From contig JAVBRN010000002.1 in assembly GCA_031547945.1 (NCBI GenBank), positions 15,736-79,735 of the forward strand: DNA of 64,000 nucleotides. Direction: 5' to 3'. Position 1 is the stretch's first letter, and each line of letters begins with the position of its first letter. The translations under genes were made by a program, and so were the position numbers. The DNA is from Oscillospiraceae bacterium. GTDB lineage: Bacteria > Bacillota > Clostridia > Oscillospirales > Ruminococcaceae. The notes under the pieces are model-generated. The model was not told where the DNA came from and did no database searches. It saw only the letters and a list, made by a program, of their open reading frames with translations. Shown here in pieces: positions 13,492 through 37,651 of this stretch.

Positions 13492-15081
13492 CTACTCTGC
13501 GCGTTGCGCGTTGTTTCGTTCCAGATCTTTGGTTAGCTTATATTCGATGGAATCGACGAGCGCAATCCAGCTGGCCTCAATAATATCCTGCGACACACCG
13601 ACCGTCGACCACGATTCGGTGCCGTCGCTCGATTCGATGAGCACGCGCACGGTCGAAGCGGTTGCGCTTGCACTGTCCATCACACGTACCTTAAAATCGA
13701 TCAGGCGCATCTCCGCAACCTGCGGATAAAAGACCTCAAGCGCCTTGCGCAGGGCTTTGTCGAGCGCGTTGACCGGGCCCTGCCCTTCGGCCGCCGTGAC
13801 TTCGGTTTGGCCATCCACCATGATCTTGATCAGAGCGGAGGCCGACATGCCCTCGCGGTAGGGCTGCTCGCCGATGATTTTGAAGTTAACGAGTTCAAAA
13901 AAAGGTTTGTATTTGCCGAGCTGCTTGCGGATAATCAGAGAAAGTGTGCCCTCCGCGCCCTCGAATTGGTAGCCCTGATGTTCCAGATCTTTGATGCGCT
14001 GGATGATCTGCTCAGCCTCGGGTGAAGATTTGGTCAGCGAGGGATCGATCTTTTGCAGATGAGAAAGAATCGCCATGCGGCCCGCGACTTCGCTTGTCAA
14101 CAGTTTGCGCGCATTCCCGATTGTTTCGGGATCCAGGTGCTCAAAACTGACCGCCGCTTTCGCAACGCCGTCCACGTGCATGCCGCCTTTATGTGAGAAC
14201 GCACTGCGGCCCACATAGGGCATTTTATCGAGCAAAATAACATTTGCCACTTCGGCGATATAGCGCGCGGTCTGCGTCAGCAGGTGCATAGTTTCGTCGG
14301 GAATGCAGTGATAACCAAGTTTCAACTGCAGATTCGGGATAATTGTCGAGAGATTGGCGTTGCCGCAGCGCTCGCCATAGCCGATAAACGTGCCCTGCAC
14401 AAGCATTGCGCCCGCTTGTACCGCCAGAATCGAGTTGGCGACCGCAAGGCCGCTGTCGTTGTGGGTATGGATGCCGACGATGTCGCCGAAACAGCGGTAA
14501 ACTTCCGCGACGATATCCGCAATTTCATTTGGAAAGCAGCCGCCGCGTGTATCGCAAAGTGTCAGGTTGTCGGCGCCCGCATCGGCTGCTGCCTGCAGGC
14601 ACTGCATCGCGTAATCCGGGTTGGCTTGATAGCCATCAAAAAAGTGCTCGCCGTCAAAGATCACTTCTTTGCCTTGCGCTTTCAGAAACGAAATTGTGTC
14701 CGCGATCATCGCGAGATTCTCATCAAGCGTCGTGTGGATGATGTCGGTGACGTGGAAATCCCAGCACTTGCCAAAAATCGCGACGGCGGACGTCTTTGCC
14801 TGCAGAAGAGACTGCAGATTTTTGTCATCCGCGGCGCTGATGCCTGGGCGGCGTGTACTGCCGAAAGCGGTCAGCTTGGCATGCTGCAAATTTAAGGTTT
14901 GCGCGCGCTCAAAAAATTCAAGATCCTTTGGGTTGGAACCAGGATTGCCGGCCTCAATATAGCCGACACCTAGCGCATCGAGCGCCTGCACAATTTTTAG
15001 CTTATCCGCAACGGAAAAGGAAATCCCTTCCGCCTGCGCGCCGTCCCGCAGCATCGAATCAAAGATGGTGACAGTTTTCAC
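13492..15081 (-). CDS. cimA: (R)-citramalate synthase (LeuA-related, CimA type)
   Basis: ORF 13492..15120. N-terminus VKTVTIFDSMLRDGAQAEGISFS, HTHNDSGLAVAN, and a C-terminal LeuA-dimer/regulatory domain; about 529 aa. GTG start at 15081 with AAGGGGG upstream. The CimA-versus-LeuA call rests on length and N-terminal pattern and is an inference. Confidence 0.75.
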   Translation of the reverse strand: MKTVTIFDSMLRDGAQAEGISFSVADKLKIVQALDALGVGYIEAGNPGSNPKDLEFFERAQTLNLQHAKLTAFGSTRRPGISAADDKNLQSLLQAKTSAVAIFGKCWDFHVTDIIHTTLDENLAMIADTISFLKAQGKEVIFDGEHFFDGYQANPDYAMQCLQAAADAGADNLTLCDTRGGCFPNEIADIVAEVYRCFGDIVGIHTHNDSGLAVANSILAVQAGAMLVQGTFIGYGERCGNANLSTIIPNLQLKLGYHCIPDETMHLLTQTARYIAEVANVILLDKMPYVGRSAFSHKGGMHVDGVAKAAVSFEHLDPETIGNARKLLTSEVAGRMAILSHLQKIDPSLTKSSPEAEQIIQRIKDLEHQGYQFEGAEGTLSLIIRKQLGKYKPFFELVNFKIIGEQPYREGMSASALIKIMVDGQTEVTAAEGQGPVNALDKALRKALEVFYPQVAEMRLIDFKVRVMDSASATASTVRVLIESSDGTESWSTVGVSQDIIEASWIALVDSIEYKLTKDLERNNAQRAE

Positions 15082-15235
15082 GGAAGGGAACCCCCTTTTA
15101 AAGATTAAAATGATAAGCACTGGTCGTTAGACGTCGGCAGCACAAATGTACGAAATGCTGCCAACAGAAAGGAGTTAGGATTAATGACAGTTTTAGAGAC
15201 CTGTCACATTAAAAATACTGAAAAAAACAATCTCC

Positions 15236-16228
15236 TTATTTTTTCTTCCAGATCATTTTCTCGCGCAGTTCGGCGCCGACTTTCTCGACGAGGTGTTCGC
15301 GCTCGATGCGGCGTGTGGCCAGGAAGTGCGGGCGGTTGGCCTGGTTTTCAAGGATCCATTTGGTCGCGAATGTACCGTCCTGAATCTCATCAAGTACCTT
15401 GCGCATTTCTTTTTTGGTCTCGGCGGTGATCAGGCGTTTTCCGACCTCATAATCGCCAAACTCGGCGGTATCGCTGATCGAATAGCGCATATAGCTCAAA
15501 CCGCCCTCGGCGACGAGGTCGATGATCAGCTTCATCTCATGAATGCATTCGAAATAGGCGCTTTCGGGCTGATAGCCAGCCTCTACAAGTGTTTCAAAGC
15601 CAGCTTTCATCAGTGCGCAAACGCCGCCGCAGAGAACAGCCTGCTCGCCGAACAGATCGGTCTCGGTTTCTTCCTGGAATGTGGTTTCCAGGATACCTGC
15701 CCTGGCGCCGCCGATGCCGGCTGCGTAAGCGAGCGCGATGTCATGCGTATTGCCCGATGGGTCCTGATAGACGGCGACGAGGCAGGGAACGCCGCGGCCT
15801 TCCTGGAACTGGCTGCGCACCGTATGGCCAGGGCCTTTGGGCGCGATCATAAAGACATTAACGTCCGCGGGCGGGACGATTTGGTTGTAATGGATATTAA
15901 AGCCGTGCGCAAACGCGAGGTATTTGCCCTTGCTGAGATGGGGCGCAATGCTCTCTTTATAAAGCTTTGCCTGTTTTTCATCATTGATCAAAACCATAAT
16001 GATGTCGGCCTGTTTTGCGGCGTCTGCCGCGGTTGCGACCTTGAGGCCGGCATTTTGCGCGATTTCCCAGGATTTGCTGCCTTCATAGAGTCCGACAACG
16101 ACATCGACGCCCGATTCGTGCAGGTTGAGCGCGTGCGCGTGTCCCTGGCTGCCATAGCCGATGATTGCGACGGTTTTTCCTTTCAAAAGATCCAGATTAC
16201 AGTTTTCTGCGTAAAATAACGTTGCCAT
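15236..16228 (-). CDS. ilvC: ketol-acid reductoisomerase (class I)
   Basis: 330 aa. [13 protein letters not shown] Rossmann motif and typical KARI C-terminus. Confidence 0.96.
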
Positions 16229-16497: not shown

Positions 16498-17016
16498 TTA
16501 CTCCACGTCTTCCTCGTCGCCCTCGCCCTTAATCCAGACGTCGCCGCGCTGGATCGCCGTCAGGCCGGTGCGCACAATCTCTCGGATGCCGAACGGTTCC
16601 ATGAGCTTAATAAACGCTTTGATTTTACCCTGTGTGCCCGTCACCTCTATCGTGAGCGCGTCGGTTGAGACATCGATGATGCTGGCGCGAAAGATCTCGG
16701 CGATGCTGACGATTTCCGCGCGCGTGGCGGAAGTCGATTGTACTTTAATAAGCGTCAGTTCCCGAAACACCGAAGTTTTTGGGCTCAATACCATAACCCG
16801 CTCGACGACAACCAGCTTTTCGACCTGGTTGCAGATCTGATCTACAATTTTATCATCGCCGCGCGTGACAATTGTGATGCGGGAAAATTGCGGATTTTCG
16901 GTCTCGCCGACACTGAGGCTATCAATGTTATAGCCGCGCCGGCTGAACAAACCGACCACGCGGCTCAGGACGCCGGCATTGTTCTCTACCAAAATCGAAA
17001 TGACGTGTTTATCCAT
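16498..17016 (-). CDS. ilvN: acetolactate synthase small (regulatory) subunit
   Basis: ORF 16498..17031. ACT-domain start HVISILVENNAGVLSRVVGLFSRRGYNI. The ATG at 17016 has GGAGG 8 nt upstream. Confidence 0.93.
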   Translation of the reverse strand: MDKHVISILVENNAGVLSRVVGLFSRRGYNIDSLSVGETENPQFSRITIVTRGDDKIVDQICNQVEKLVVVERVMVLSPKTSVFRELTLIKVQSTSATRAEIVSIAEIFRASIIDVSTDALTIEVTGTQGKIKAFIKLMEPFGIREIVRTGLTAIQRGDVWIKGEGDEEDVE

Positions 17017-17044
17017 TCCGGTGACCTCCAAGTATCAAAATTGC

Positions 17045-17345
17045 TGGAAGGAATAAAAAATGCCTCTCCCAAGCTTTATGAAAAGCCAGGGACGAGGCAT
17101 ACTACCACGTGTTACCACCCTTGTTTCTTTTCCGCCTCGCGGCGAAAAACTCTGCAGGTTCCAACAAACCTTCGCCGATAACGGGGCGGCCCGTTTTGCG
17201 CTTAATGAGCTGTGCAGCCGTTCAGCGAAAAAGCTCGTGAGTGACGCATTGTCCGCACCTCTATCGGTTTGCACCAACCACCGACTCGCTGAAAATGATG
17301 CGCGGATATACTTGTCTCAGTCAACGCTGTAGCAGTGTTTAGAAA
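17045..17345 (-). promoter_or_regulatory. T-box leader (tRNA-sensing riboswitch) of the ilvN...ilvB cluster
   Basis: On the minus strand: a Stem-I-like CAGCGAGTCGGTGGTTGGTGCAAACCGATAGAGG, the T-box sequence GGGTGGTAACACGTGGTAG (plus-strand 17101-17120), then the terminator ATGCCTCGTCCCTGGCTTT..AAAGCTTGGGAGAGGCAT plus TTTTTTA. The specifier is ambiguous: GUC-A (Val) or CUC-A (Leu) in GCGUCACUCACGAGC. Confidence 0.8.
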
Positions 17346-17723: not shown

Positions 17724-19400
17724 TCAGTTCTGCTTGGCGAGCGGGTGCCCGGTGAGCGTCAGCATCCGGTTGAGCGCGCTCAGGACAGAGAGCAGCGAGG
17801 ATTTGCTGATGCTTGAGCTTACGCCGGCGCCAAAGAAGGAACGGCCGTTGTCGTCGTCAATCTGCAGGTAGGTGATCGCGCGGGATTTGGAGCCATATTC
17901 CAGCGAATGCTGGCTATAGTTGATAATTTCAAACCGCAAATCAAGCGATTCGCAGAGCGCCTCGCAGAACGCGCTGACGATGCCGTTCCCGTGCCCCTCA
18001 ATTTCACGCGCTTCGCCGTTGATGTTTATCGTTGCCGCCACCGAAAATGCGCCGTTGGTGGTTTCGTTGTACTTCACCAATTCGAGCGGTTGTTTGAGGT
18101 TGATATAGGTTTGGTCAAACAGTTCGTAAATCTGCGATGGAGACAAAACTGTTCCGGCGCGGTCGGAAAAATCGGTTGCGAGTGGGCCAAAATCCTGCTG
18201 CATCGCTTTTGGCATTTGAATGCTGTATTCCTGCTCAAGCACAAACGCCACACCGCCCTTGCCCGATTGGCTGTTCACGCGCACGATCTGGTTGTAGCTT
18301 CGACCGACATCGATTGGGTCGATGGGCAGATAGGGGACTTCCCAGTAGTCCGGGTGTTCCCGCAGCTTCGCGATGCCTTTTTTAATCGCGTCCTGGTGCG
18401 AGCCGGAAAACGCGGTAAACACAAGATCGCCCGCATATGGATGCCGCGGGTGCACCGCGAGCTCGGTGTAATTTTGATAGGTTTCAATGATGTCGTCGAT
18501 TTTGGTAAAATCGAGACTGGGATCGATGCCCTGTGTGTACATATTCATTGCGATTGTGAGGATATCAGCATTGCCGGTGCGCTCACCATTGCCGAACAGT
18601 GTACCCTCCACGCGCTGCGCGCCCGCGAGCATTGCTAGCTCGGACGCCGCGACGCCAGTGCCGCGGTCGTTGTGCGCATGCACGCTGACAATGACATTGT
18701 CGCGGCAGTGCAGGCAGCGGCTCATGTATTCAATCTGATCCGCATAGACGTTCGGCATCGTCATTTCCACGGTGTTGGGCAGGTTGATGATCACCTTACG
18801 GTCTGACGTTGGCTGCCAGACATCGATCACGGCGTTGCACACTTCGGCGGCGTAGTCCATTTCGGTGCCCGTAAAACTTTCGGGCGAATATTCAAACCAA
18901 AACCGCTCGCGGCCGTACTGTTCGGAAAGTTCATTCATGAGACCGGCGCCGTCAATCGCGATCTGCCTGATCTCGTCCTTGCTCTTGTTAAAAACGACAT
19001 CACGCTGCAACGTGGAGGTGGAATTATAAAGATGCACAACGGCCCGCTTGACGCCCTCGAGCGATTCGAACGTCCGTCGTATGATATGGTCGCGCGCCTG
19101 CGTGAGAACCTGAATGGTCACATCGTCCGGAATCAGGTTGCGCTCTATAAGCGTACGCACAAAGCTGAATTCGGTATCGGAAGCGGCCGGAAAACCGACC
19201 TCAATTTCCTTAAATCCAATCTCAACCAGCAGCCGAAAGAAATCCAATTTCTGTTCCAGCGTCATGGGATTGACGAGCGCCTGGTTGCCGTCGCGCAGGT
19301 CGACGCTGCACCAGATCGGCGCCTGGACAAGCTGCTGCATCGGCCAAGTACGGTCTGCAAGCTGGAAAAGCGGATAGGGTCGGTATTTTGTGAAATTCAT
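17724..19400 (-). CDS. leuA: 2-isopropylmalate synthase (long, LeuA type 2)
   Basis: 558 aa. N-terminus KYRPYPLFQLADRTWP...APIWCSVDLRDGNQAL, HAHNDRGTGVA, and a C-terminal regulatory domain. Confidence 0.93.
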   Translation of the reverse strand: MNFTKYRPYPLFQLADRTWPMQQLVQAPIWCSVDLRDGNQALVNPMTLEQKLDFFRLLVEIGFKEIEVGFPAASDTEFSFVRTLIERNLIPDDVTIQVLTQARDHIIRRTFESLEGVKRAVVHLYNSTSTLQRDVVFNKSKDEIRQIAIDGAGLMNELSEQYGRERFWFEYSPESFTGTEMDYAAEVCNAVIDVWQPTSDRKVIINLPNTVEMTMPNVYADQIEYMSRCLHCRDNVIVSVHAHNDRGTGVAASELAMLAGAQRVEGTLFGNGERTGNADILTIAMNMYTQGIDPSLDFTKIDDIIETYQNYTELAVHPRHPYAGDLVFTAFSGSHQDAIKKGIAKLREHPDYWEVPYLPIDPIDVGRSYNQIVRVNSQSGKGGVAFVLEQEYSIQMPKAMQQDFGPLATDFSDRAGTVLSPSQIYELFDQTYINLKQPLELVKYNETTNGAFSVAATININGEAREIEGHGNGIVSAFCEALCESLDLRFEIINYSQHSLEYGSKSRAITYLQIDDDNGRSFFGAGVSSSISKSSLLSVLSALNRMLTLTGHPLAKQN

Positions 19401-19842: not shown

Positions 19843-20150
19843 AAAAAAGCAATAACAAAAAAGCCTTCCGTCTCGATAAGAGACGAAAGGCGCTATGCTT
19901 TCCGCGGTACCACTCCAATTGCACAATATAACATTGTGCCCCTCTGCAGATACGGCGCAATGTATGCGCGATATCCTGTCCCATGCTAACGGCGGGCACC
20001 CGTCTTCACCTACTACAGCGCAAAACGCCTGTTCAGCAAGCCGCTCGGAGGCCAGTTCGGTTTCGCTGCGATGCTGCCTTGCACCAGCCGGCAACTCTCT
20101 GAAAACGCTTCCTGAAACGTACTATTCCTCGTCTTCGCGTTTGGTCATTG
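19843..20150 (-). promoter_or_regulatory. T-box leader upstream of leuA
   Basis: Minus strand: Stem I CAGAGAGTTGCCGGCTGGTGCAAGGC, T-box AATTGGAGTGGTACCGCGGAAAG (plus-strand 19898-19920), terminator CCTTTCGTCTC ttatc GAGACGGAAGG plus CTTTTTTGTT. The candidate Leu specifier is CUG or CUC in GAACUGGCCUCCGAGCGG. Confidence 0.85.
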
Positions 20151-31612: not shown

Positions 31613-32239
31613 ATGGAGCAAAAGCAAACAAAGCAGGAGATTTTTGTCGCGGCGATTGAAATGTTTTCCACAGTAGGCTATACCGAAAGTACAATGCGGG
31701 AACTTGCAAAACGGGTTGGGATCAAAGCGGCAAGCCTGTATTACTATTATCCCAGCAAAGATGCCCTCCTGGATGAGGTTTTTGATTATTTTATTATCAA
31801 CGATGCTGCCTATCGCACGCCGACAAACCAGATTGTTGATGCAGCGCGCAACAGGAGTCCCGCAGAGATTTTGGCGATGTCAGTGATCACCTATAAAAAA
31901 GATACGCAGTTTATGTTAATGAGTAAAATTCTGCGCATTGCAATCGGCTATCAATTTGAAAATAAGCGGGCGCGGGAGGTTTTCAACTGGATCTATTATG
32001 ACCTGGCATTGCGCAAACGGGAAGACCTTTTTATGGAATTGATTCGGCAGAGCATTCTCGAGTCGTTTAACTATAAAGCGGTTGCCTATATTATTACGTC
32101 CTATTCCCTGGGCCTTTTTATGCAGTGTGCCAACCGCGAATTGCCGATTGAAGAATTCACCGATATCTATAACACGGGTATGTTGGAAATGACCGAGACA
32201 ATAGCGCCGCTGCTGCACAGATGTGCCGACAAGGCATGA
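31613..32239 (+). CDS. TetR/AcrR family transcriptional regulator
   Basis: 208 aa. The N-terminal HTH reads IFVAAIEMFSTVGYTESTMRELAKRVGIKAASLYYYYPSKDALL. Confidence 0.9.
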   Translation: MEQKQTKQEIFVAAIEMFSTVGYTESTMRELAKRVGIKAASLYYYYPSKDALLDEVFDYFIINDAAYRTPTNQIVDAARNRSPAEILAMSVITYKKDTQFMLMSKILRIAIGYQFENKRAREVFNWIYYDLALRKREDLFMELIRQSILESFNYKAVAYIITSYSLGLFMQCANRELPIEEFTDIYNTGMLEMTETIAPLLHRCADKA

Positions 32240-33058: not shown

Positions 33059-33781
33059 CTATGGTTTCAGCAAAAGGTTTAGCATGCCTTCCGGATGGTT
33101 GAGAAATTGTTTTGTAAGCTGGTAATGTTCCGTTTCCAGGTAGGGTGTCAGGCGGATGCCGTCCTCGCCGAACACATAGATTTGCGCGCTTGGATAGGAA
33201 AGCAATATCGGCGAGTGGGTTGCGATTACAAATTGCGACTGCTGCTGCACAAGCGCATGCATCCGGGACAGCAGCGCCATCTGCCGCGCCGGCGAGAGCG
33301 CGGCTTCGGGCTCGTCCAGCAGATAGAGGCCACGGCCGTAAAAGCGCTCGAGCACCAATGTCAACACACTTTCCCCATGTGACCGCTGGTGCAGCGATGT
33401 CCCGCCGTAGCTTGCGGCGACGTCAATGTTGTCAATCTCCGTTATGACGTTATAAAAGCTCTCGGCACGCAAAAAATAGCCGTCTTGCGGCTGATATGGC
33501 CCTTTTACGAGCGTGATTGCTTGATGGAGTGCTGAATGGGTCTCTGCTGTCGCAAAGTGGAAATTGCGCGAGCCGCCTTCCGGGTTAAAACCGTATGCAA
33601 CGGCAATCGCCTCCAGCAGGGTCGATTTCCCCGTGCCGTTTTCGCCCACAAAAAAGGTCACCGGCTGCTCCAATTGAATCGCGTCCATATGCAGCACAGC
33701 GGGCAGCGAAAAGGGATAGGCGGACCAATCAATTGTCAGCGTGGATTTGACAGAAGCGCCTGTCAGATACAGATCCGTCAT
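33059..33781 (-). CDS. AAA/ABC-like ATPase (COG3910-type predicted ATPase)
   Basis: 240 aa. Walker A GENGTGKSTLLEA, Walker B LYLLDEPEAALSP, H-loop-like IATHSP. No nuclease or TM domain is present. Confidence 0.8.
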   Translation of the reverse strand: MTDLYLTGASVKSTLTIDWSAYPFSLPAVLHMDAIQLEQPVTFFVGENGTGKSTLLEAIAVAYGFNPEGGSRNFHFATAETHSALHQAITLVKGPYQPQDGYFLRAESFYNVITEIDNIDVAASYGGTSLHQRSHGESVLTLVLERFYGRGLYLLDEPEAALSPARQMALLSRMHALVQQQSQFVIATHSPILLSYPSAQIYVFGEDGIRLTPYLETEHYQLTKQFLNHPEGMLNLLLKP

Positions 33782-34269: not shown

Positions 34270-34713
34270 TTACTGCAGCAAAGACGCGATCATTGCGACA
34301 GCGTCGTCCACCAGGCGCGCAACCGAAAGGTCGTTGACACCGACGATTAGATTGTTGCAGCGGTTGACCGGAATCAGCACCTTTTTCGCCTGGCTTTGGC
34401 CAACGGCAAGCGCCATCGCGGGCGTTACTTCGCCGAGCAGGGAATCGGCGATCACGATACCAATCGGGCCAACGATAATGTCTGCTGTGCGGCTGGCGAC
34501 GACAACAGGGTTTTCGCCGGTGGCGCCGTTGTTCGCGCCGCCCTTCATCATCGTCGCGGTCGCCGTGGCATTGGTGCCAATGGCAGTAATCATGCTGTGC
34601 GGCAATGCCGCCTTGATTTTTTCGATCAACTGCTTGCCGAGTTTGCCGCCCTGGCCGTCGATAACAGTGATCTGCACGGAATTGTCCATAGGATGTCCTT
34701 TCAGCGATTGCAA
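34270..34713 (-). CDS. DUF3842-family protein
   Basis: 147 aa. The pattern QITVIDGQGGKLGKQLIEKIK...AIGTNATATATMMKGGANNGATGENPVVV matches my recollection of DUF3842. The overlapping ORFs 34205..34789 and 34217..34750 are rejected as shadow ORFs. Confidence 0.65.
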   Translation of the reverse strand: MQSLKGHPMDNSVQITVIDGQGGKLGKQLIEKIKAALPHSMITAIGTNATATATMMKGGANNGATGENPVVVASRTADIIVGPIGIVIADSLLGEVTPAMALAVGQSQAKKVLIPVNRCNNLIVGVNDLSVARLVDDAVAMIASLLQ

Positions 34714-35021
34714 AGAAATAAATGTGCCGAGTAGAAACGGAAATACGCAAACGGCAGATTCTGTGTTCTATGCCGCTGTTTTTAGATAATGCACTGCGTT
34801 CACTTTACACAGTTTTCCTCTTTTATTCAACCGTCTTTCCAATCGCCCGGCTGGTGGGTGCAAAAATAGCGGCTGTTTCCGCCGCGCGTGCGTATATAAT
34901 GCGCATAAAAAGAGAGAGGCGCAGTGACAGCCTAGCAGTCGGGGCGGAACAGAACCGCGCTTTGGAACGAAGTCTCTTTACGATTTTACGGTTTTGACTG
35001 TTTTGGAACCGTTGTTTGCGC

Positions 35022-35050
35022 TTGACATCTCCGGGAAAATTCGATACTAT
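35022..35050 (+). promoter_or_regulatory. putative promoter of the metY-metA leader
   Basis: TTGACA (35022-35027), 17-nt spacer, TACTAT (35045-35050). Confidence 0.6.
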
Positions 35051-35088
35051 GAACTACACAAAGTACGCAAAGAGGGAGGGCCATCACA

Positions 35089-35190
35089 ATGCGACTGTCG
35101 GTCAATGTATACAATATGATGATGCCCATGGGTGAGATGATGCGTCTCACATCTTTTTGCGTGCAGCGAATGCCCGCCATGGGCAAATGA
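35089..35190 (+). CDS. putative Met-rich leader peptide MRLSVNVYNMMMPMGEMMRLTSFCVQRMPAMGK (33 aa)
   Basis: My own translation; the ORF is too short for the ORF track. The SD-like AGAGGGAGGG ends about 8 nt before the ATG at 35089. Nine of 33 codons are ATG, including ATGATGATG-CCC-ATG (35116-35130) and ATGATG (35037+100: 35137-35142). The stop TGA is at 35188-35190, 24 nt before the terminator stem. Confidence 0.5.
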   Translation: MRLSVNVYNMMMPMGEMMRLTSFCVQRMPAMGK

Positions 35191-35214
35191 ATAGATAGGC
35201 ACTAGAGGAATTCT

Positions 35215-35250
35215 GCCTGTCTCGCGCACGCGGGGCAGGCTTTTTGTTTG
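35215..35250 (+). terminator. intrinsic terminator (attenuator) in the metY leader
   Basis: GCCTGTCTCGC gcac GCGGGGCAGGC: an 11-bp stem including G-U pairs, followed by TTTTTGTTTG, 65 nt upstream of the metY ATG. Confidence 0.8.
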
Positions 35251-35314
35251 CGAAGATTGATGTTCCACACACAAATGTATATACTAAATCCATATAACGA
35301 AAGGGAAACAGAAC

Positions 35315-36601
35315 ATGGACAAAAATTACGGGTTTGAGACCATTCAGGTACACGGGGGGTTCAACTACGACACGCGCACCGGCGCGCATGCGGTACCCAT
35401 TTATCAAACAAACGCCTACGTGTTTGAAGATACGCAGGATGCGGCTGAACAATTTATGCTCAAGAAACCGGGCAGCATCTATACCCGCCTGAGCAATCCG
35501 ACCGTGAATGTGCTTGAGGAGCGCATTGCGCGGCTCGAGGGCGGCGTCGGCACCGTGTGCTTTGCCTCCGGCATGGCCGCGATTATGGCCGCGATTACAA
35601 ATATTGCGGAATCGGGCAGCGAAATCATATCGCTGTCGTCGGTATACGGCGGCACCTATACGCTGCTGTTCCAGCGGTTTGCCTACCATTACGGTATCAA
35701 AGTGCACAATATCGATGACGACGATCTCGACGGCCTGCGCGCCGCGATCAACGAGAAAACACGCTGCATTTATTTTGAGACGATCGGCAACCCGCACACC
35801 AACATTCCCGAAATCGAGCAAGTGGTCAAAATCGCGCACGAGCACGGTCTGCCGACCATTGTGGACAATACCTTTGGCACGCCGTATCTAATTGACTGCA
35901 AAGCGCTGGGTGTGGATTTTACGATTCACTCGCTCACCAAATTTATCGGCGGGCACGGCAACAGCGTCGGCGGTTCTGTGACCGATCTCGGCAACTTTGA
36001 CTTTAAAGGAAATCCGCGCTTTGCGATGATGAACGAACCGGACGCGGCCTATCAGGGTGCTGTTTATGCCGATTTTGGCCCGGCAGGCTATCTCGTAAAA
36101 CTGCGGGCGGCGATCCTGCGCGATACCGGCGCATGCCTTTCGCCGTTCAATGCGTTTTTGATTTTGCAGGGGCTGGAGACGCTCAGCCTGCGTATGGAAC
36201 GAAACACGGCCAACGCGGCGCGTTTGGCGAACTATCTCAACAGCCATCCGGCGGTTGCCTGGGTGAACTATCCGGGGCTTGAGGGCGACAAATATCACGG
36301 CCGCGCGCAAAAGTATTTTCCGAAGGGCGTGGGAAGCATCTTCGCGTTTGGCGTCAAGGGCGGCGTGGAGGCCTGCAAGAAATTTATCAATGCCCTTGGG
36401 CTGTTTTCGTTCGTGGCAAACGTGTCAGACGTGCGCTCGCTGGTCACGCATCCCGCGAGCATGACCCATTCCCAGCTCGACGACGAAGGGCTTAAGGCGG
36501 CGGGCGTCAGCGGCGACCTCATTCGTATCTCGGTGGGCATCGAGACGGTCGAAGATCTGATTGCCGACCTCGACCAGGCGCTCGCGGCTTCCCAAAAATA
36601 A
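35315..36601 (+). CDS. metY: O-acetylhomoserine aminocarboxypropyltransferase / sulfhydrylase
   Basis: 428 aa. Cys/Met-metabolism PLP enzyme; PLP-lysine block HSLTKFIGGHGNSVGG. Confidence 0.93.
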   Translation: MDKNYGFETIQVHGGFNYDTRTGAHAVPIYQTNAYVFEDTQDAAEQFMLKKPGSIYTRLSNPTVNVLEERIARLEGGVGTVCFASGMAAIMAAITNIAESGSEIISLSSVYGGTYTLLFQRFAYHYGIKVHNIDDDDLDGLRAAINEKTRCIYFETIGNPHTNIPEIEQVVKIAHEHGLPTIVDNTFGTPYLIDCKALGVDFTIHSLTKFIGGHGNSVGGSVTDLGNFDFKGNPRFAMMNEPDAAYQGAVYADFGPAGYLVKLRAAILRDTGACLSPFNAFLILQGLETLSLRMERNTANAARLANYLNSHPAVAWVNYPGLEGDKYHGRAQKYFPKGVGSIFAFGVKGGVEACKKFINALGLFSFVANVSDVRSLVTHPASMTHSQLDDEGLKAAGVSGDLIRISVGIETVEDLIADLDQALAASQK

Positions 36602-36613
36602 GGGGGGATCATT

Positions 36614-37567
36614 ATGCCGGTTAAAATACCAAACGGCCTGCCGGCTGCTGAAATTCTGGCGAAAGAAAATATCTTTTTGATGACGGATACGCGCGCTGTG
36701 AAGCAGGATATCCGTCCGCTGCAGATCGCTGTGTTCAATCTGATGCCGACCAAGCTCGCGACCGAGACCCAGTTGCTGCGCGTCCTAAGCAACTCGCCGC
36801 TGCAGGTGGAGGTCACGCTGCTGCATACCGCGACCTATGAGTCGCGCAACACCGACCGTGACCATCTTGCGGCGTTTTACCGGACGTTCGACGACATCAA
36901 AGACGCGCAGTTTGACGGCCTGATCATCACGGGCGCGCCGGTGGAACAGATGGACTTTGAACAAGTCTACTATTGGCAAGAATTGTGCAATGTCATGGAT
37001 TGGGCAGAAACGAACGTCTTTTCGACGATGTATATCTGCTGGGCGGCGCAGGCTGCGCTCTATCATCATTATGGTATCGGTAAATATCCGCTGGCAGATA
37101 AGATCTTTGGCATCTATCCGCACAAACGATTGCGCTATGATCATCTGCTAATCCGCGGGTTTGACGATATCTTTTATGCGCCGCACAGCCGGCACACAGC
37201 TATCGACGTCGACCATGTCGCCGCGCAGCCGGCGCTGGAAGTGCTCGCAACGTCGGAAGAGGCGGGTCTCTACCTCGCCGCTAGCAAAGACGGCAGCCAG
37301 GTTTTTGTCACCGGACACAGCGAATACGGCGCCGAGACGCTGGAGCTGGAATACCAGCGCGATGTGGCGGCTGGCAAACCGATCGCTGTCCCCAAAAACT
37401 ACTACCCGAACGATGATCCGACCAAACCGCCGCTTGTCTCCTGGCGCGCGCATGGCAACCTGCTGTTTGGCAACTGGCTCAACTATTTTGTCTATCAGGA
37501 GACACCATACGATATCACGCATGTCGCCGCGGAAAAATCGGCGCACAAAGCGCGAACAAAAGGATAA
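36614..37567 (+). CDS. metA: homoserine O-acyltransferase (MetA type)
   Basis: 317 aa. N-terminus MPVKIPNGLPAAEILAKENIF, LQIAVFNLMP and GLIITGAP are typical MetA blocks. Confidence 0.93.
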   Translation: MPVKIPNGLPAAEILAKENIFLMTDTRAVKQDIRPLQIAVFNLMPTKLATETQLLRVLSNSPLQVEVTLLHTATYESRNTDRDHLAAFYRTFDDIKDAQFDGLIITGAPVEQMDFEQVYYWQELCNVMDWAETNVFSTMYICWAAQAALYHHYGIGKYPLADKIFGIYPHKRLRYDHLLIRGFDDIFYAPHSRHTAIDVDHVAAQPALEVLATSEEAGLYLAASKDGSQVFVTGHSEYGAETLELEYQRDVAAGKPIAVPKNYYPNDDPTKPPLVSWRAHGNLLFGNWLNYFVYQETPYDITHVAAEKSAHKARTKG

Positions 37568-37620: not shown

Positions 37621-37651
37621 AAAAAGAACCCGATTGTATCGGGTTCTTTTT
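37621..37651 (+). terminator. intrinsic terminator of metA
   Basis: AAAAAGAACCCGAT tgt ATCGGGTTCTTTTT. Confidence 0.85.

Follow-up and report, generated by a model that had tools for sequence, protein, structure and literature searches.

A methionine-codon-rich leader with conserved alternative RNA structures upstream of metY-metA in uncultured Clostridia: a candidate ribosome-mediated attenuator

The metY-metA leader and its relatives

The 64,000 nt stretch of Oscillospiraceae bacterium DNA analysed here (contig JAVBRN010000002.1 of assembly GCA_031547945.1; hereafter the window, whose numbering is used throughout) carries on its forward strand metY (35315..36601), coding for O-acetylhomoserine sulfhydrylase (NCBIfam TIGR01326, 577 bits), and metA (36614..37567), coding for homoserine O-acetyltransferase (NCBIfam NF047918, 477 bits), which would be the first and second genes regulated by a leader lying just upstream. 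The leader transcript has a sigma-70-type promoter, TTGACA-17-TACTAT (35022..35050, + strand, 10/12 matches), from which transcription is predicted to start at about 35057, and a Shine-Dalgarno (SD) sequence, AGAGGGAGGG (35071..35080, +), positioned 8 nt ahead of the ATG of a short open reading frame (ORF). This leader ORF (35089..35190, +) has 33 codons and a TGA stop, and specifies the peptide MRLSVNVYNMMMPMGEMMRLTSFCVQRMPAMGK, in which nine residues are methionine, with ATG at codons 1, 10, 11, 12, 14, 17, 18, 28 and 31. Codons 10-14 (ATG ATG ATG CCC ATG, 35116..35130, +) form a first Met cluster, the proposed main stall site, and codons 17-18 (35137-35142) form a second, which sits within the inner stem and loop of a hairpin designated P1 (GUGAGAUG-AUG-CGUCUCAC, 35132..35150, +). 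A U-run lies 3' of P1, which in the window is directly trailed by ATCTTTTTG (also given as AUCUUUUUG). An intrinsic terminator (35215..35250, +) begins 24 nt past the leader stop codon, and consists of a stem at 35215-35240 (11 bp, 8 of them GC) with the loop GCAC, followed by TTTTTGTTTG. An initial annotation made from the sequence alone had named the promoter, the strong SD, the ORF with its nine ATG codons, the internal hairpin and U-run, the strong terminator and the downstream gene pair, and all were found as described, the genes through their NCBIfam matches. It had also read the region as an attenuator keyed to Met codons, an interpretation that gains support from the comparative and computational evidence given below.

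MetY was used to search GTDB species genomes, giving 80 loci, and in the three closest of these (L001-L003, Bacillota/Oscillospiraceae metagenome-assembled genomes (MAGs), MetY identity 68-72%) the element lies upstream of metY. It was also present in 12 of 12 contigs looked up for MetY relatives at 64-85% identity. Scanning metagenome DNA for the pattern ATGATGN{8,24}TTGCGTNNNGCGAATGCC picked out 17 stretches, of which two were real (L081 and L084) and the other 15 were chance matches inside unrelated genes. The 12 MetY-relative look-ups, three GTDB MAGs and two metagenome contigs make up the 17 distinct versions compared here. Using nhmmer with a family profile, the element was not found in the 77 non-member metY loci (L004-L080, MetY identity at most 63%), and no second copy was found in the 64-kb window. 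On its 3' side the element always has metY, and beyond that usually metA, metF and metH, while the upstream neighbour varies between contigs (gatB, DUF3842, polysaccharide deacetylase, Tim44-like, AraC), indicating that the element is tied to the met operon. As far as sampled, it appears to be restricted to one clade of uncultured Clostridia. Most relatives extend the operon with metF, a Met_synt_B12-like gene and metH; in the window a terminator-like hairpin (GAACCCGATTGTATCGGGTTC followed by TTTTT, 37626-37651) about 60 nt past metA indicates an operon of metY-metA only.

Comparison of these versions directly supports the leader ORF and its frame, the Met cluster, the SD and the promoter. 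The SD, start codon, Met cluster with its frame, and terminator are kept in all 17 versions, and an equivalent of the leader promoter (TTGACA-16/18-TAnnAT) occurs at the matching place in 14 of the 15 relatives scanned. The SD is of the GGAGG type and lies roughly 7-10 nt before the ATG in every version (17/17). The leaders are 22-34 codons long with 4-8 internal Met. In the window, ATG accounts for 8 of the 32 internal codons, where the Met background is 1.6% (MetY + MetA; P = 3e-8), and across all 17 versions internal Met makes up 17-28% of codons (P from 3e-8 to 5e-4). In the basic pattern an M-x-M-x-M core is separated by two or three codons from a further one to three Met; most versions retain this core, with occasional single losses (L084, L100, L104), and in some R, Y, L, T or K stands in place of an individual Met. 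Between the ATG and the cluster's first Met the sequence is not conserved, and the length is 18, 24, 27, 30, 33 or 36 nt, in each case divisible by three, so that at least five indel events have all left the frame intact (about 0.004 by chance).

An upstream ORF with at least three ATG in seven codons was found at 4 of the 80 metY loci (the three family members and L038), and at none of 78 reverse-complement controls. Public gene callers predict the small ORF in most related contigs, and the window peptide is recorded as predicted protein P0121; a phmmer search of the 33-aa peptide against 1.84 billion representatives returned only itself, the query being too short for a database of that size. 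The fourth locus, L038:2274-2470 (a Eubacteriales MAG, MetY identity 56%), has a different-looking Met-cluster leader ahead of metY, with a TTGACA-17-TATTCT promoter, an SD, and the ORF MCQVFMMRMSMQRVDFSPCLA (5 Met in 21 codons), followed by two terminator-like hairpins, the first of which has the stop codon in its loop. This leader is not detected by the family profile, and may be a second Met-leader attenuator, either independent or very diverged.

The initial annotation had reported neither an S-box nor a T-box consensus, and the covariance-model searches agree. At E<=10, cmscan of 34850-35400 gave only three noise matches (S10-Clostridia at 15.5 bits, BtsR1 and SNORD10), with no match to the SAM riboswitch models (SAM-I/S-box, SAM-II to SAM-VI, SAM/SAH, SMK), to the T-box model RF00230, or to the Rfam leader families (Trp_leader, His_leader, Leu_leader, Thr_leader, Leu/phe leader and others). 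No Rfam model, those for SAM included, reached gathering level in the 15 homologous leader loci. Across the whole window, the gathering score was reached by two T-boxes only, neither of them at the met leader, and these serve as a positive control for the model: 17085-17333 (-, 95 bits) and 19876-20144 (-, 123 bits). That the met leader is a T-box, a SAM riboswitch or another Rfam family is thus ruled out by cmscan at the window and its homologues. The same search gave S-box matches in the non-member loci L009, L010 and L018, and in L010 and L018 these lie upstream of metY, so that sister lineages have an S-box leader ahead of metY instead.

The two T-boxes of the window precede ilvH-ilvC (16498-17031, 15236-16228) and leuA (17724-19400), and a citramalate synthase gene is found at 13492-15120; one genome thus has T-boxes for branched-chain genes and a leader peptide for metY. 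In another metY locus (L030, an uncultured Oscillospiraceae MAG, MetY identity 57%), a RAGATH-18 motif (66.5 bits) lies about 70 nt upstream of metY with a Clostridiales-2 RNA (74.4 bits) just 3' of the gene (motif coordinates L030:1823-1884 and L030:3384-3478); both are Rfam motifs catalogued there as sRNA genes.

Alternative RNA structures

Unguided RNAalifold analysis of 15 sequences returned three structures: a helix between the RNA 5' end and a site inside the leader ORF, the hairpin P1, and the terminator. Together these have 92% of alignment cells paired and 13 covarying pairs, compared with 36-57% of cells in slid controls. The first helix joins segment 1, or '5' box' (GUACGCAAAGAGG, 35063..35075, +), a stretch at the RNA 5' end that overlaps the SD, to 35152-35164 in segment 2 (35152..35169, +), the most conserved stretch of the element. 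It is paired in 87% of cells, with duplex energies of -11.8 to -22.4 kcal/mol, cognate partners pair better than non-cognate ones (p=0.0004), and the helix is also found in the diverged L111 and L112. The 5' box is therefore a candidate anti-antiterminator strand. P1 is paired in 97% of cells and has three pairs with compensatory changes (CG/UA/GC, CG/UA, GC/AU); the terminator is present in all versions and has six such pairs.

The initial annotation had left the antiterminator pairing unestablished by eye, and folding revealed a conserved three-way junction at 35159-35231. Its closing helix, A, joins the 'A-arm' within segment 2 (GCGUGCAGCGA, 35159-35169, +) to 35222-35231, a strand that spans the terminator 5' arm, the loop and the first two bases of the 3' arm. 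Enclosed by helix A are the second arm of the junction, hairpin P2 (UGCCC-GCCAU-GGGCA, 35171..35185, +), and helix C, in which AGAUAGGCA (35193..35201, +) pairs with 35214-35222 at the start of the terminator 5' arm. The whole of segment 3 (35214..35231, +), comprising the terminator 5' arm, the loop and the first 2 nt of the 3' arm, accordingly has two pairing options, either helix C plus the A-arm (antiterminator) or 35230-35240 (terminator). When each sequence was folded only up to the terminator loop, as a partial transcript, the same A-P2-C junction was the minimum-energy fold in 15 of 15 sequences, and also in L111. Of the 16-19 nt that make up the terminator 5' arm and loop, the junction sequesters 11-17 in each of the 15 homologues at a stage when no 3' arm has yet been made.

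These alternative helices covary, which directly supports them. Helix A is paired in 95% of cells across the 17 sequences, against 25-64% in slid controls, with duplex energies of -9.7 to -15.8 kcal/mol (z about -3 against shuffles) and cognate partners better than non-cognate ones (p=0.006); two of its pairs covary (UA in 10 and CG in 5; GC in 15, AU in 1 and GU in 1). P2 appears in the minimum-energy folds of nearly all versions, and at its position 16 there is C-G in five sequences and G-C in eight, while L101 has UGUGCU/AGCACA. Helix C covaries with the terminator arm at two positions (AU/GC at one, GC/AU/GU at another). Covariation thus links the terminator 5' arm to each of two partners, as is characteristic of a switch; the junction linkers and loops vary freely, and so the junction does not look like an aptamer. 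Applied to a MAFFT alignment of the antiterminator region, RNAalifold returned no more than a portion of helix A, since P2 and helix C lie in length-variable, misaligned stretches; per-sequence folds and anchored pair counts were used for these two helices in place of that alignment.

Two other pairings in the region were considered and set aside. The initial annotation had pointed to GCCCATGG (35124-31) and CCATGGGC (35177-84) as segments that can pair; the complementarity is real, but it exists only in the window and is ruled out as part of a conserved mechanism, the conserved structure where CCATGGGC lies being the local hairpin P2. P1 with its U-run was also rejected as a first terminator, since the U-run is not conserved, relatives having CCGCUUUG or CCAAUUUG.

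The codons past the Met clusters, TGC GTG xxG CGA ATG, show almost no synonymous variation in 15 versions (one GTA), and even the rare CGA codon is kept, which argues for a constraint on the RNA and not the peptide. The positions that do vary there are non-synonymous, being the first base of an F/L/I/V codon and the middle base of a Q/L/P codon. The peptide is unconserved outside the Met codons, its N-terminus included, and covariation in P1 alters the encoded residues (GE, GG, CE, RG). In the two most diverged family members, L111:2306-2447 and L112:2312-2456, a Leu codon has become UAA or UAG (GUG UAA CGA, GCG UAG CGA), so that the peptide ends in the A-arm; a single base change has cut it by 5-10 residues and left the RNA switch undisturbed, the pairing being kept by a compensatory ACGAA:UUCGU in place of GCGAA:UUCGC. 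From these sequence comparisons, the conserved entity is the RNA, and not the leader peptide.

A model of attenuation and its alternatives

We consider it probable that this leader is a ribosome-mediated transcription attenuator, sensing the charging of Met-tRNA for metY-metA. Transcription would begin near 35057, and a ribosome would load at the strong SD and translate the 33-codon leader, its position selecting the fold adopted by the RNA downstream. With methionine plentiful, the ribosome would reach the stop codon, which is located within the antiterminator, and there cover the region of the A-arm, P2 and helix C; with the junction at 35159-35231 blocked, the terminator (35215-35240 and U-run) would fold and transcription would end. 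With methionine scarce, the ribosome would stall on the AUG clusters (codons 10-14 and 17-18) with its leading edge at about 35152, just short of segment 2, so that the A-arm, P2 and helix C would fold first, trap the terminator 5' arm and allow read-through into metY-metA. P1 may act as an RNA polymerase pause hairpin. The 5' box (35063-35075), through its pairing with segment 2, probably holds untranslated leaders in the terminating form.

The stop codon falls within the junction region in every version, lying in the A-arm in L111 and L112, in P2 in nine versions, and just 3' of P2 in the window and five others. The distance from the last AUG of cluster 2 to the A-arm is gap-free in all 17 sequences, and with that codon in the A site the leading edge of the ribosome would be at about 35152, leaving the whole A-arm free.

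Several observations weigh against this reading. The stop codon is 15-20 nt beyond the A-arm in the window (19 nt) and in L098, L100, L103 and L104, so that a ribosome terminating there would lie over P2 and helix C, and not over the A-arm itself. A ribosome that stalled at Met codons 28 or 31, which are in or beyond segment 2, would promote termination. The competing 5'-box strand is upstream of the SD and would be left uncovered by a ribosome stalled on the Met codons; in line with this position, the 5'-box helix forms in calculated folds whether the Met clusters are masked or not. More generally, equilibrium folds with masked ribosome footprints give no clean switch between stalled and terminating states, so that the model relies on the kinetic picture drawn from partial transcripts. 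For 13 of 15 sequences the lowest-energy structure at full length was the terminator. In the full-length folds set beside the partial-transcript ones it is favoured by 4-20 kcal/mol, and the antiterminator must therefore win kinetically, as in classical attenuators. Only two pairs of helix A covary, most of the others being invariant, and the 17 sequences represent perhaps 8-9 independent sublineages, a relatedness that inflates the shuffle statistics. Lastly, a second sigma-70-like site, TTGATG-17-TATACT (35257-35285), lies downstream of the terminator and ahead of metY, and its hexamers and part of its spacer are shared with L100 (MetY identity 72%). L098 has a different promoter-like match between terminator and metY, and 14 of the 17 family members have none there; in this subgroup the site may provide basal transcription that bypasses the attenuator.

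The model is conjectural on the way in which a stalled ribosome would keep the 5'-box helix from forming. Conceivably the box is blocked by a trailing ribosome trapped on the start site, behind a lead ribosome stalled at the Met cluster, or by steric exclusion. Since the 5' box overlaps the SD and not the coding region, antitermination could be taken to need that second ribosome, making the leader a 'queue' attenuator which senses ribosome traffic, not the position of a single ribosome, and reads both translational uses of methionine: a lack of fMet-tRNA would lead to failed initiation, a free 5' box and termination. The spacer of 5-11 codons between the ATG and the cluster, about one ribosome footprint, fits such an arrangement, which we nevertheless regard as rather unlikely.

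Apart from attenuation by one or two ribosomes, the leader might be a riboswitch-like or protein- or tRNA-binding RNA, in which the AUG triplets of cluster 1 and the P1 loop and the invariant sequence UUUGCGUGYWGCGAAUGCC serve as recognition elements (compare TRAP and its triplet repeats) and the ORF is incidental. Conservation is indeed strongest at the nucleotide and not the peptide level, a 19-nt stretch between P1 and P2 hardly varies, and the fold has a z-score of -2.5. Yet the double pairing duty of that stretch (segment 1 with 2, and 2 with 3) accounts for its invariance, both length and sequence differ among versions in the linkers of the junction and in the P2 and helix C loops, leaving no conserved unpaired core of the aptamer type, and no Rfam model matches; moreover, SD, ATG and frame have survived at least five independent indels, all multiples of three, and the stop codon always falls inside the antiterminator, all of which makes this explanation improbable. 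A peptide-level sensor is hardly a better prospect: in an arrest system of the TnaC or SpeFL type, an M-x-M-P-M...M nascent peptide would stall on a small molecule, and M-x-M-(P/C/R)-M-x-(G/E)-x-M, often with Pro within it, is the only conserved part of the peptide. The residues of this motif nonetheless vary freely (MMMPM, MRMCM, MYMPM, MLMPM, MMMPT, MMMPK, KMMRM), the number of Met in cluster 2 ranges from one to three, and the logic would be wrong, because a stall at the cluster means read-through here and a stall induced by Met or SAM would turn the operon on when its product is abundant.

It is more improbable still that the leader is an independent small gene or sRNA, set beside metY-metA without regulatory meaning, with the operon transcribed from the 35257-35285 site. 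That promoter-like match, its sequence shared with L100, and the different match in L098 would suit such a case, but in the 14 members without one the gap between terminator and metY is just 35-60 nt, and the element is always directly ahead of metY while the genes upstream change. A gene in its own right would also be at odds with a peptide unconserved outside its Met codons, and with a terminator 5' arm that covaries with two partners, which is sensible only for a switch. Attenuation through Met codons remains our preferred account.

Further upstream in the window are a TetR-family regulator (31613-32239, +), a 240-aa AAA/ABC-type ATPase (33059-33781, -) that weakly resembles defence-system ATPases (PtuA model, E = 1e-11, far below cutoff), and a 147-aa ORF (34270-34713, -) without an NCBIfam match, the equivalent position in L100 being occupied by a DUF3842 protein.

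Comparison with known systems

Leader-peptide attenuation is a textbook mechanism for Trp, His, Leu, Thr, Ile/Val and Phe, and methionine genes of Firmicutes are the textbook case of control by S-box riboswitches and T-boxes. In common with the trpL, hisL, leuL, thrL, ilvL and pheL attenuators of Proteobacteria, the met leader has an SD-led short ORF rich in codons for the end product, an intrinsic terminator ahead of the first gene of the operon, terminator and antiterminator helices that exclude each other, a candidate anti-antiterminator helix, and a stop codon placed so that a finishing ribosome would block the antiterminator. It differs in the codon that it would sense, AUG (Met), and in its host, uncultured Clostridia (Oscillospiraceae-like), and it has no sequence or covariance-model similarity to the attenuator leaders of Rfam. 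Its antiterminator is also unlike theirs, being a three-way junction (A-P2-C) that includes the stop codon, and its segment 1 lies upstream of and overlaps the SD and so is not under the stalled ribosome. If the model is true, this odd layout, with a stop codon in a junction antiterminator and a competing strand at the SD, raises the question of how ribosome position is read out.

The S-box and Met T-box leaders of Firmicute met genes control the same genes with the same terminator/antiterminator read-out, and the proposed met leader would, like a T-box, report the charging of tRNA-Met rather than SAM. In contrast to both, its sensor would be the translating ribosome, and not an aptamer or a tRNA-binding RNA, and neither model matches it. 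Leaderless short ORFs with Cys codons act as attenuators in mycobacteria, where ribosome stalling at codons for a sulphur amino acid controls sulphur or amino-acid genes; these differ in using Cys and not Met, in being leaderless and actinobacterial, and in a reported mechanism other than the canonical intrinsic-terminator switch.

A search of the open full-text literature found no described Met-codon attenuator, and the sole Met-related leader was the 'metL' peptide MSTTSDRTPATEATTTPGARCMCRRMCAF, annotated upstream of metNIQ in Streptomyces lividans TK24 (PMC8079986). Like the leader described here, metL was proposed as a methionine-dependent leader peptide, and it has a C-terminal M/C/R-rich patch resembling MMMCMRGMM (PMC8079986). 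It is, however, a leaderless single-genome annotation with two internal Met, from another phylum and with another target operon, has no clear terminator according to its authors, and is without comparative or structural support (PMC8079986). The His-leader attenuators predicted in Firmicutes (the B. cereus group, Peptostreptococcaceae and Erysipelotrichales) are also lineage-restricted, replace the usual T-box or repressor control, and were found by similar comparative analysis, though their codons are for His, their target is the his operon and their sequences are unrelated (PMC9413887). If the present reading is correct, ribosome-mediated attenuation has been recruited for methionine too, met regulons gain a further regulatory type, and the family provides a compact natural sensor of tRNA-Met charging; it would also represent a class of leaders missed by covariance-model annotation pipelines in uncultured gut and digester Clostridia. 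Leader-peptide attenuation itself is the known part of this system, and what would be new is its keying to Met codons, at a metY operon, in a conserved family with covarying alternative helices.

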